64,000 nt of DNA from Eledone cirrhosa (taxonomy: Eukaryota), in contig OZ024748.1 of the NCBI GenBank assembly GCA_964016885.1, forward strand, positions 10,664,001 to 10,728,000, written 5' to 3'. Made by a program: the position numbers and the translations under genes. Shown here one piece after another: positions 54,001-55,932 of the stretch. A model generated the notes under the pieces. The model did not search any database. It had not been told where the DNA came from and saw only the letters and a list, made by a program, of their open reading frames with translations. Position 1 is the first letter of the stretch; each line of letters begins with the position of its first letter.

Positions 54001-55932
54001 GTTATGTTAACAGATATAATAAACATAACATATCTTATTACTGTGGAAGTTATGTTGACAGAAATGAACCTTATTGCAATGTTTGCTTCAGTCAACATAA
54101 CAGCAATAGCCAATTTTAATGTGTGTGTGTGTGCATGTGCGTGCGTATAGGATGTGGCAAAAATAACCCTCCTTTCTGCATTTTATTTTCATTCCATAAA
54201 AATTCATAGATGAATAAAAGGCATTACCTTTGCTGCACCCTGTACACACAAACACACACTCATATGACCAGTAAAATATAAATGCATATATATAAATATA
54301 TAGCTGTACTTACAATTGTGATACTAACAGCATCATCAAACTGTCGCATCACTGCACTAACTAGTGCAGATGCAAGCAGCAGCAATATTAAAGGATTGTT
54401 GAACTGTAATATAAACAAAGGGATAGATTTAGTGTCATTGTCACAGTGATGTTGGTGGTGGTGTAGTTGTGGTGGGGGGGTCATGGTGGAGATGATGGAT
54501 GTGGTGGTGGCAGCAGTGGTGTTTTGATAATGATTGTCCCACCCTTGCAAATAGGGAAAAGCGGATGTAAAATGATGATAATGATGATTAAAATATTTAT
54601 TTATAATAAATTTATGAAGAAATGCACTAAAATTCTTTTTTTTTTTTTTTTTAAATGTCCTTGTAAAAGCAGGGAGTATCTTATACAAAGGGATGTCCAA
54701 TAGGCCAGCAAATATGATAATTTAAGATGTGATTAACCAAAGTTTAGCTTCACCAAACACCACAACCATTACCACCACAACCACTATTAACCAAACATCA
54801 CCGCCACAACAACTACAAACACCACCACCACCACTGCTACTAACCAAAGACTATTATCACCACCACTCCCTTCCCCACACTAATACAACACCGTCATTCT
54901 CCTCCCCACACAAACCACAAATCACCACTAATCGATAATTACCCCACTCACCTGTCCAAGGTACTAGAAAGCAATAATTCCCCCACTCACCTGTCCAAGG
55001 TACTAGAAAGCAATAATTCCCCCATTCACCTGTCCAAGGTACTAGAAAGCAATAATTCCCCCACTCACCTGTCCAAGGTACTAGAAAGCAATAATTCCCC
55101 CATTCACCTGTCCAAGGTACTAGAAAGCAATAATTCCCCCATTCACCTGTCCAAGGTACTAGAAAGCAATAATTCCTCCACTCACCTGTCCAAGGTACTA
55201 GAAAGCAATAATTCCCCCACTCACCTGTCCAAGGTACTAGAAAGCAATAATTCCTCCACTCACCTGTCCAAGGTACTAGAAAGCAATAATTCCCCCACTC
55301 ACCTGTCCAAGGTACTAGAAAGCAATAATTCCCCCACTCACCTGTCCAAGGTACTAGAAAGCAATAATTCCTCCACTCACCTGTCCAAGGTACTAGAAAG
55401 CAATAATTCCCCCACTCACCTGTCCAAGGTACTAGAAAGCAATAATTCCCCCACTCACCTGTCCAAGGTACTAGAAAGCAATAATTCCTCCACTCACCTG
55501 TCCAAGGTACTAGAAAGCAATAATTCCCCCACTCACCTGTCCAAGGTACTAGAAAGCAATAATTCCCCCACTCACCTGTCCAAGGTACTAGAAAGCAATA
55601 ATTCCTCCACTCACCTGTCCAAGGTACTAGAAAGCAATAATTCCCCCACTCACCTGTTCAAGGTACTAGAAAGCAATAATTCCTCCACTCACCTGTCCAA
55701 GGTACTAGAAAGCAATAATTCCTCCACTCACCTGTCCAAGGTATTTCCACCAAAGTGGTTCTTCTTTGCTGATCTCAAATTCATTAAAGCCATGAACTTT
55801 CCTGCGATTGGCTGCTTCATCGTGAGTTAAACCGACCTTGAGGTCCGTGTCGAGAAAGTTGCAGAGATCTTGGTAAAGCATCTGAGATGCCTTCTCTGCT
55901 GGTAGAACTGACATCATCTCGGAATCTCCATT
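32976..55932 (-). CDS. ATP2C1: Secretory-pathway Ca2+/Mn2+-transporting P2A ATPase (SPCA1), multi-exon
   Basis: 23 GT-AG exons join in frame. Motifs: [77 protein letters not shown]. True first exon not located. Confidence 0.95.
33304..33410. mobile_element. piggyBac-type MITE, internally deleted
   Basis: Both TIRs present, centre missing. Confidence 0.7.
33619..34173. mobile_element. hAT/Charlie-type MITE
   Basis: TIRs CACAGGTTCTCAAC / GTTGAGAACCTTTG; flanks GTCTAAAT / GACGAAAT (6/8 TSD). Confidence 0.72.
34326..37838 (-). mobile_element. Near-full-length, ORF-intact RTE-type non-LTR retrotransposon in last ATP2C1 intron
   Basis: Single APE+RT ORF, 3' terminal stem-loop, (TGA)n tail, (TA)n on both flanks. 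Confidence 0.95.
34681..37668 (-). CDS. LINE ORF: AP endonuclease + reverse transcriptase with Cys/His-finger insert (frame open to 37779)
   Basis: [72 protein letters not shown]. Confidence 0.95.
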   Translation of the reverse strand: MLERKEVDVCCIQETRWRGGSARFIEGKKRCYKLFWVGNDDGLGGVGIMVAEKWADKIIDVNRVNDRIIKIRLVLNRTTVTVISAYAPQSGLPGTIKDRFYETLLLTTSQISDSDYIIIAGDLNGHVGQHCDGYDEIHGGYGFGTRNEEGSRILEYCDANNLTICNTNFKKRDNHLITYRSGEHTSQVDYILTRRRDRVSVVNTKSLPHEECTSQHRLIISDLIVRTRRTRQQKRTILRRKIWKLKDPTARNKFQSILLDAFDSKEEHLESDNIEGQWKFLKANLLLATDEVCGWSRPVGRRRVTWWWNNRVEGSIKAKKQAWKVWRDGGSRVDYQVARREARREVYLARREAEERKFKHVLQRDDQKREVFRIARQCVKEDRDIVGEKCVLNDDGILAITDTDKKVAWKCHYERLLNEENKWEKDSLPHIDPIEGPAVLVEGSIISKAIKDMKTGKAAGPSEIVAEMLKASGTVGHTMVTRIVNQVVQNGVVPKDWHSSIIVNCYKGKGDALDRSNYRGIKLIDQVMKVTEKVIAQLIRERIDLDEMQFGFVSGKSTTDALFIVRQLQEKYLAKGKPLYLAFVDLEKAFDRVPRSIIWWALRKLGVDEWLVRAIQAMYKETVSKVRINNEYSEEFSVKVGVHQGSVLSPLLFIIALQAITEEFKTGCPWELLYADDLTLIAESMAELEKKFQTWKHGLESKVLKINLAKTKVLVCRKENKAAVPSGKWSCSVCRKGVGRNSILCPKCKVWVHKRCSGITGKLTKNIDFTCGRCSGAISSSKCPQNTSSFNCAEGSIEIVDSFRYLGDKISSGGGCSESTVARVRTGWKKFRELIPLLAAKGFSLKMKGRLYDACIRTAMLHGSETWALCAEDIRRLERNEACMLRWMCNSNIRERQSINELRKKLEIRGIRCCLLERRLRWYGHVMRMKVDSCITKCRAIKIDGSHGIGRPRKTWDELINSDLIHLHLSKTMSLDRDLWRYSVTEKTRLASRHL
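38010..38151 (-). CDS. ATP2C1: ATP2C1 exon
   Basis: [12 protein letters not shown]...[18 protein letters not shown]. Confidence 0.93.
38652..38747 (-). CDS. ATP2C1: ATP2C1 exon
   Basis: [26 protein letters not shown]. Confidence 0.93.
39397..39544 (-). CDS. ATP2C1: ATP2C1 exon
   Basis: [16 protein letters not shown]...GTLWVFWKE. Confidence 0.92.
39678..39794 (-). CDS. ATP2C1: ATP2C1 exon
   Basis: [22 protein letters not shown]. Confidence 0.93.
40330..40398 (-). CDS. ATP2C1: ATP2C1 exon
   Basis: [22 protein letters not shown]. Confidence 0.92.
40889..41055 (-). CDS. ATP2C1: ATP2C1 exon
   Basis: [22 protein letters not shown]...DDDF. Confidence 0.95.
41425..41573 (-). CDS. ATP2C1: ATP2C1 exon
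   Basis: ARLGL...FYRTSPRHK. Confidence 0.9.
42248..42418 (-). CDS. ATP2C1: ATP2C1 exon
   Basis: [13 protein letters not shown]...[10 protein letters not shown]. Confidence 0.93.
42728..42941. mobile_element. piggyBac-type MITE
   Basis: TTAA-bounded TIRs. Confidence 0.82.
43029..43185 (-). CDS. ATP2C1: ATP2C1 exon
   Basis: [11 protein letters not shown]...GLR. Confidence 0.92.
43213..43400 (-). mobile_element. tRNA-derived SINE (same family)
   Basis: Reverse-complement match to the 44081 copy. Confidence 0.8.
43466..43570 (-). CDS. ATP2C1: ATP2C1 exon
   Basis: MNLYD...[15 protein letters not shown]. Confidence 0.9.
43954..44043 (-). CDS. ATP2C1: ATP2C1 exon
   Basis: VACLCNNA...[14 protein letters not shown]. 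Confidence 0.92.
44081..44270 (+). mobile_element. tRNA-derived SINE with GCCTTTCATCCTTACGGGGTCGATAAAATAAAGTACCAG core (Meta-domain-like)
   Basis: A/B-box head, conserved core, AT-rich tail; other copies near 2880, 8930, 9488, 12164, 20815, 22414, 27373, 29055, 31315, 43213, 45503. Confidence 0.8.
45053..45148 (-). CDS. ATP2C1: ATP2C1 exon
   Basis: [10 protein letters not shown]...YKIAE. Confidence 0.88.
45985..47220 (-). mobile_element. CR1-type LINE 3' fragment
   Basis: [58 protein letters not shown]; frameshifted. Confidence 0.9.
47290..47387 (-). CDS. ATP2C1: ATP2C1 exon (phosphorylation site)
   Basis: [20 protein letters not shown]. Confidence 0.93.
47562..47686 (-). CDS. ATP2C1: ATP2C1 exon
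   Basis: [22 protein letters not shown]...VETL. Confidence 0.93.
49158..49300 (-). CDS. ATP2C1: ATP2C1 exon
   Basis: [18 protein letters not shown]...MFTIGV. Confidence 0.9.
50149..50472. mobile_element. piggyBac-type MITE with nested SINE (50338-50436)
   Basis: TIRs; SINE flanked by 16-bp TSD GTAAATATAGAATAAT. Confidence 0.85.
50630..50698 (-). CDS. ATP2C1: ATP2C1 exon
   Basis: [23 protein letters not shown]. Confidence 0.92.
50770..51180. repeat. Purine-rich GGGAGAGGGTAGACA minisatellite
   Basis: Direct reading. Confidence 0.85.
51440..52000. repeat. TATCTATACATACACACA minisatellite
   Basis: Direct reading. Confidence 0.85.
52012..52167 (-). CDS. ATP2C1: ATP2C1 exon
   Basis: [15 protein letters not shown]...[12 protein letters not shown]. 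Confidence 0.92.
52551..52762. mobile_element. piggyBac-type MITE
   Basis: Same family. Confidence 0.78.
52932..53040 (-). CDS. ATP2C1: ATP2C1 exon
   Basis: LRNGK...ARDLVPGD...[12 protein letters not shown]. Confidence 0.92.
53624..53685 (-). CDS. ATP2C1: ATP2C1 exon
   Basis: [20 protein letters not shown]. Confidence 0.9.
53886..53921 (-). CDS. ATP2C1: ATP2C1 exon
   Basis: [12 protein letters not shown]. Confidence 0.9.
54314..54403 (-). CDS. ATP2C1: ATP2C1 exon
   Basis: [16 protein letters not shown]...FDDAVSITI. Confidence 0.92.
54941..55743. repeat. 39-bp tandem array (20 units) containing the ATP2C1 exon end and 5' splice site
   Basis: Unit CCTGTCCAAGGTACTAGAAAGCAATAATTCCYCCAYTCA, exact period 39 from 54951 to 55731. 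Confidence 0.97.
55732..55932 (-). CDS. ATP2C1: ATP2C1 exon
   Basis: [10 protein letters not shown]...[27 protein letters not shown]. Confidence 0.9.

Follow-up and report, generated by a model that had tools for sequence, protein, structure and literature searches.

A 39-bp Minisatellite over an Exon-Intron Boundary of ATP2C1 in Eledone cirrhosa Reiterates a Splice Donor and Is Most Likely Silent

The window analysed here is a stretch of 64,000 nucleotides from Eledone cirrhosa (GenBank assembly GCA_964016885.1, contig OZ024748.1, positions 10,664,001 to 10,728,000 of the forward strand), and the feature of interest is a tandem array that repeats a splice donor of ATP2C1, the gene for the SPCA1 Golgi Ca/Mn pump. 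The gene occupies 32976..55932 on the minus strand, with 23 coding exons within the window, no internal stop, and GT-AG boundaries at 22 of 22 introns. The preceding coding exon (L061:8590-8501) lies outside the window, about 26.6 kb upstream. The 201-nt coding exon at 55732..55932 (NGDSE...KYLGQ) ends in phase 0. The original prediction had named the gene as ATP2C1, and the identification holds since the exon matches human SPCA1 in the PDB (E 7e-13) and, over its length, Octopus bimaculoides ATP2C1 at 91%. The authentic donor of this exon (55726..55734) agrees with the U1 consensus at eight of nine positions. The next coding exon, 90 nt in length (FNNPL...SITI), lies at 54314..54403. The intervening intron measures 1328 nt, or 548 nt when the extra repeat units are subtracted, in a gene where the median intron is 596 nt and the shortest is 133 nt.

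A 39-bp tandem array adjoins the 201-nt exon on the minus strand (Tandem Repeats Finder: 20.7 copies, 97% matches, no indels, score 1534) and, as a repeat, it is far beyond chance. It is composed of 20 full units (54964..55743) and a diverged last copy (54933..54963) that runs into unique intron. The first unit straddles the true exon-intron boundary, which is backed by a spliced contig and by protein alignment, and starts 12 nt inside the exon. Each full unit consists of the last 12 nt of the exon, the first 19 nt of the intron, and 8 extra nt ending in TAG. In unit 1, the 8-nt piece is found at 55705..55712; it is identical in all 20 units and provides both an in-frame TAG and an acceptor-like AG. 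The 12-nt exon end is first copied into the intron at 55693..55704, where it forms a candidate micro-exon, and 19 more copies follow at 39-bp steps. As the original prediction had it, 20 near-identical units present 21 donor-like sites, and these were located at an exact spacing of 39 bp from 55731 to 54951, 18 of them reading CAG/GTGAGT and three CAG/GTGAAT. Seventeen of the 20 extra donors match the 9-mer of the first donor exactly.

The in-frame TAG precedes the 12-mer in every full unit. Reading past the first donor keeps the frame and ends at a stop after eight codons, VSGGIIAF, or VNGGIIAF in three units, which bears out an earlier claim that distal donors would meet a stop. The related claim that each 12-mer copy codes for YLGQ behind an acceptor-like AG was correct for the AG in 20/20 full units and for the peptide in 19; the 12-mer of unit 2 codes for YLEQ, and the last copy is without the 8 nt that form the acceptor-like site. 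The last copy also differs from the commonest unit at 2 of 19 intron letters. Four unit variants (9, 7, 3 and 1 copies) occur in a patterned order, in which an A-G-G block recurs in the middle of the array and the GTGAAT variant is confined to the distal part. In a genome-wide match, both the exon and the unit were found at a single locus, and a dispersed or transposon origin of the 39-bp unit was rejected as all 20 exact unit matches lie at ATP2C1. From a comparison by eye of repeats and exons, an array spans only this one of the 45 splice boundaries of the gene.

Sequencing runs were compared over the exon and about the first two units. Four of the seven listed runs were used (X1 to X4; X5 to X7 are restriction site-associated DNA sequencing), in the form of contigs that omit rare forms. 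X1 and X2 derive from one sample, S1, which is possibly the source of the assembly; X3 bears the same organism label and is from another sample; X4 is labelled as another organism and is referred to here as organism B. A collapsed 69-nt contig of the unit has a depth of 93.6 in X1 and 60.4 in X2 versus 6.16 and 4.66 for contigs of the flank. The resulting ratios of 15.2 and 13.0, compared to 11.4 predicted from the assembled 20 units, are rough estimates from one DNA sample and support at least the assembled array length. The original prediction had allowed that the array might be an artefact of assembly. No listed run contig spans the whole array and S1 may itself be the assembly source, but the excess depth of the unit in two runs, the distal array boundary contained within an X2 contig, and the patterned variants among the units make an artefact scarcely credible. 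At 54930, the X2 letter differs from the assembly and matches organism B, likely representing an allele or a different individual.

The most direct observation on splicing comes from X3. A contig from this run (3245 nt, depth 43.5, n = 1) covers exactly 55932-55732, and its end past 55732 is identical to the exon that begins at 54403 over 30 of 30 letters with no extra 12-mer included. The other loose end of the contig codes for the end of the upstream exon. The library kind is absent from the record for X3, and the contig alone was used to class it as spliced RNA because its ends continue into the neighbouring exons. The first two units are not covered by any X3 contig, a gap that is given no weight as evidence. 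The 55732 to 54403 junction, proposed earlier as a check on the array, is thus joined directly in this single contig. The authentic site is used in 1/1 spliced contigs, a count from which minor forms are not measurable; the region compared does not reach the junctions that would link distal units with the next exon. Related octopod proteins agree with the contig: in 11/11, YLGQ or YLEQ runs straight into FNNP with no insert, although the genes concerned may lack the array. Nearby in the same exon, at 55752-55750 of the minus strand, PLWWKY is found here where the 11 related proteins all have PLWRKY. No alternative letter is seen at this site in runs X1, X3, and X4; the substitution looks real and is common to organism B.

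The organism B contig provides a view of the boundary in a single copy. The exon differs by seven listed changes, five of which are at third codon positions. It is followed by 19 intron bases and then, in register, by sequence that by eye is identical at 25 of 30 positions to the unique intron flank behind the array (54903..54932). Both the array and the 8-base piece are absent from this contig. The comparison displays the likely state before amplification together with the 8 bases that would have been added. The array is lineage-restricted, and the simplest account of the two sequences is a duplication with later amplification in this lineage. In such a history, a 31-bp segment spanning the junction of exon and intron would have been duplicated, with 8 bases added where the copies met; the duplicated unit would then have been amplified by slippage or unequal exchange, and the old junction would have been left behind as the diverged last copy, which is likely the original exon-intron junction. 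A search of about 1,400 positions for a local sequence that could have templated the added bases gave at best 7 matching letters of 8, which is near chance, and such a template was rejected.

The copied splice signals were scored against those of the gene itself, with crude acceptor matrices derived from the 23 acceptors of ATP2C1. Over -22..+1, the acceptor-like AG scores -0.4 to -1.8, which is above 1/23 real acceptors and is matched by 16% of 1024 decoy AGs; the score is low because the tract is short and the upstream sequence is G-rich. The site has 10/19 pyrimidines, below all 23 real acceptors (12-16), and 7-8 G upstream versus four or fewer in 22/23 of them. The AG-free zone is 15-25 nt in length, while 12/23 real acceptors have at least 58 nt. 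No YTNAY branch point was found within 60 nt of the AG of unit 5. When considered as micro-exons of the eMIC/SRRM4 type, the 12-mers display two of five features, UGC near the AG and a strong donor, and fail on a long AG exclusion zone, a long pyrimidine tract, and a strong branch point. The 27-nt spacers are too short to be introns, as had been claimed, given the gene's shortest intron of 133 nt, and the use of two adjacent 12-mers is not possible. From unit 4 onward the upstream intron would be at least 144 nt, exceeding that minimum, and inclusion of a single 12-mer is geometrically possible. RNA structure was also considered as a cause of first-donor choice and rejected (z 0.58 for the exon end plus units); the predicted accessibilities of donor 1 (0.011), the copies (0.003-0.037), and the real donors (0.001-0.201) are alike.

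Arrays of this kind have been described in other animals, in sources that were available in part. Intron 7 of human F7 contains a 37-bp variable number tandem repeat (VNTR) of 5-9 units that reiterates a donor, and the same report lists like arrays in IFI6 (6-16; 25 pseudo-sites), CBS intron 13 (15-20 units), LMNB2, and PDGF intron 4 (PMC1557585). Splicing in F7, LMNB2, and PDGF draws solely on the donor furthest upstream, and in IFI6 and CBS it extends beyond this donor to no more than the two closest copies (PMC1557585). The ATP2C1 array resembles these five in the placement of its first unit over an exon-intron boundary, in the reiterated donor (4-25 copies among them), in a similar unit size, and in use of the most upstream donor. 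Its head-to-tail units of 39 bp also fall within the 10-160 bp expected of exon-boundary minisatellites. It differs from F7 in belonging to a mollusc, in carrying 12 exon bases per unit rather than 4, in a unit length that is a multiple of three with a stop, and in an acceptor-like AG in each unit. In amphioxus, a cephalochordate, the minisatellites termed mirages in Adh3, BflGb6, and BflGb9 carry AG/GT signals and end copies that have diverged, and the genes are spliced regularly (PMC3087553). The ATP2C1 array is similar in the patterned order of its unit variants and in its diverged last copy. Somatic and allelic instability has been demonstrated for the amphioxus repeats (PMC3087553).

Two further systems bear on whether such an array could act. 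The 25-bp VNTR in intron 18 of human ABCA7 also starts at a donor, and use of its second donor retains one unit and creates a target of nonsense-mediated decay (NMD); in the part of the report available, one-unit retention is about 2% and unchanged with length (PMC5954066). In contrast to the ATP2C1 repeat, the ABCA7 unit starts at the GT, includes no exon bases, is out of frame, and reaches about 427 copies (PMC5954066, partial text). The exon 2 repeats of SmPoMuc in Schistosoma mansoni, likewise an invertebrate example, comprise as many as 20 genomic units in tandem, every one of which carries a 27-nt exon, but these units are about 1 kb with real introns and translated exons, compared to 27-nt spacers and no inclusion seen here (PMC2576457, sections seen). 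The gain of introns from duplicated AG/GT sites serves as general background (PMC2891723, consulted in part). No report on this locus was found in the literature on octopus ATP2C1, octopus intron minisatellites, or mirage minisatellites, with most subscription papers and supplements outside the coverage. The locus is taken as a further member, this time from a cephalopod, of the class of repeats already described in human and amphioxus genes, and is most likely silent. Its one unusual trait is that every unit holds an in-frame AG-12 nt-GT cassette together with a UGC, a candidate only.

The favored reading, held with good though not complete confidence, is that of a single-locus minisatellite at an exon boundary whose effect is close to neutral, splicing being directed to the first donor as in the one spliced contig. 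With some 26.6 kb of intron ahead of it, the exon would be defined across its own length of 201 nt, between the acceptor at 55933 and the closest good donor. Exon sizes over 300 nt are disfavoured, and donors 2 and 3, which would yield exons of 240 and 279 nt, may be the only likely leak. The leak RNAs would carry a stop nine codons in and be degraded or yield a dead stub, transcripts with early stops being subject to NMD, and the whole array would be removed with the 1328-nt intron. The original prediction had included a neutral minisatellite among its options, and the first-donor contig and the 11 insert-free proteins favor it; the NMD switch, U1 decoy, and YLGQ micro-exon options that stood beside it gained no positive evidence here. 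The intact gene, the single locus, the single copy in organism B, and an intron length close to the gene's median once the extra units are subtracted also speak for the neutral reading. Several observations weigh on the other side. The splicing evidence derives from one RNA assembly of unknown tissue, rare isoforms are lost from contigs, and NMD would hide the products of leakage. The first-donor rule was established in mammalian cells, not molluscs. With two taxa, a gain in this lineage and a collapse in organism B look alike and cannot be told apart. The copied donors are strong, with 8/9 U1 matches, when only 3/22 real ATP2C1 donors reach 8 or more, the first donor among them. Over the shorter range of -14..+1, the acceptor-like AG scores 6.0, a value that exceeds 3/23 real acceptors and falls within the best 2.1% among 1029 decoy AGs, and a UGC is present at -10, as it also is at 140/1024 decoy AGs. 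Lastly, array length in ABCA7 changed the splicing of the next exon, with skipping rising with length, according to the accessible text (PMC5954066).

In a first rival account, the NMD switch or U1 decoy of the original prediction, more units divert more pre-mRNA to distal donors, with their stop and NMD, or cause a flanking exon to be skipped, so that allele length tunes the level of SPCA1. Each of the 20 distal sites is a strong donor whose use adds an in-frame stop, both flanking exons are multiples of three (201 and 90 nt), and the skipping of ABCA7 exon 19 increased 3.2-fold from the shortest to the longest VNTR genotype in the part of the source available. This account is nonetheless unlikely: the assembled transcript is the plain form, the array is not conserved in that organism B is without it, the downstream copies in F7 do not compete (PMC1557585, seen in part), and in ABCA7 the use of repeat donors was independent of length with no link between length and NMD found, within the text seen, for the isoform tested. 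A second account would have one or several spaced 12-nt copies included as in-frame YLGQ micro-exons, with the Srrm234/eMIC program in neurons as the most plausible route, and thereby lengthening the segment just before the first membrane helix. An AG, 12 nt, and a strong donor are present with the frame kept in 20/20 units, the proximal acceptor score and the UGC noted above are in its favor together with the upstream intron length from unit 4 on, and the eMIC program is described as bilaterian in the portion available (bioRxiv 2021.02.24.432780). As with mammalian SRRM3/4 (eMIC) micro-exons, the piece is tiny and frame-keeping with UGC near the AG and a strong donor. However, eMIC exons are marked by extended AG-free zones and pyrimidine tracts and by strong branch points (bioRxiv 2024.09.17.613571, 2021.02.24.432780), and the copies here are unlike them in each respect. 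The copies also have more G upstream than 22/23 real acceptors of the gene. With a full-length acceptor score that many decoys match, a UGC that is common at decoys, no conservation, and no insert in the spliced contig or the related proteins, inclusion is very unlikely. An elaboration that is held to be just as doubtful is that the 8 extra bases made an acceptor and a UGC before a 12-nt in-frame piece in one step, giving 20 newborn neural micro-exons with allele length setting the addition of YLGQ before the first helix of the Golgi calcium pump.

The CAG/GT joints may alternatively be viewed as recursive splice points from which the intron is removed stepwise to give the same mRNA. Each unit has an AG directly before a strong donor, the CAG reaches 2.6-3.1 when scored over -22..+1 (exceeding 3/23 real acceptors and within the top 5.5% of decoys), and the end product would equal the contig seen. 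Known cases of recursive splicing come from long introns, while this intron is only 1328 nt. The acceptor is weak, and its AG-free zone of 10 nt falls short of the 14 nt that is the least found among the 23 real acceptors. This possibility is considered slim in the extreme, and the protein would be unaffected by it. Read as a near-neutral minisatellite, the array matters little beyond offering a natural substrate for the "first donor wins" rule in molluscs. It would matter more if allele length altered the dose of SPCA1 or if neurons included the 12-mer, and in the latter case micro-exons would have been born by tandem duplication.

The frequency with which an array should fall over a donor was estimated from complex minisatellites, defined by a period of 20-100, at least 5 copies, and at least 90% matches. 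Nine were identified in a background of 34 hand-spaced 10-kb stretches totalling 339,800 bases, six of these stretches being neighbours of the window, and three were identified in the window itself. At this density, the probability that any one donor lies within a founding unit some 37 bp long is near 8e-4, and 77-154 donor-spanning arrays are expected genome-wide assuming 100,000-200,000 donors, a number that repeat-borne arrays inflate and selection deflates. An array over a donor is thus rare per gene and expected genome-wide, and one such array is unsurprising in a genome scan because 77-154 would arise by chance. Three pattern searches for like arrays returned 1432, 8465, and 1054 matches versus 527, 1047, and 397 in reversed controls, with a few satellites dominating. 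Simple AGGT-type repeats were dropped from inspection. Among the matches listed, all from contig C1, seven arrays were inspected (L010, L040-L045), which is no census, and 0/7 showed a clear coding exon whose end coincides with the first donor, leaving no second gene example among them; 0/3 short frames near inspected arrays had a Pfam match. One of the seven, L010 (G000:C1, 37421429 to beyond 37425236), is a 30-bp satellite of more than 100 copies that has the same strong donor 9-mer and shares 15 bases with the ATP2C1 array unit; there is no evident coding exon ahead of it.

Other repeats point to a repeat-rich genome. Very long minisatellites were present in 2/34 background stretches, at L076:5-10000 (26 bp, at least 386 copies) and L078:4713-8509 (39 bp, 99 copies). 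Minisatellites of 48 bp at 17789-18292 and 62798-63101 in the window and at L078:1419-2286 have visibly related units on opposite strands, which suggests a dispersed family. Elsewhere in ATP2C1, a coding exon opens at 45148-45143 (minus strand) with GTAAGT right after the acceptor AG, forming a perfect donor and a junction of the recursive type; the residues VSG encoded at this exon start are common to relatives.

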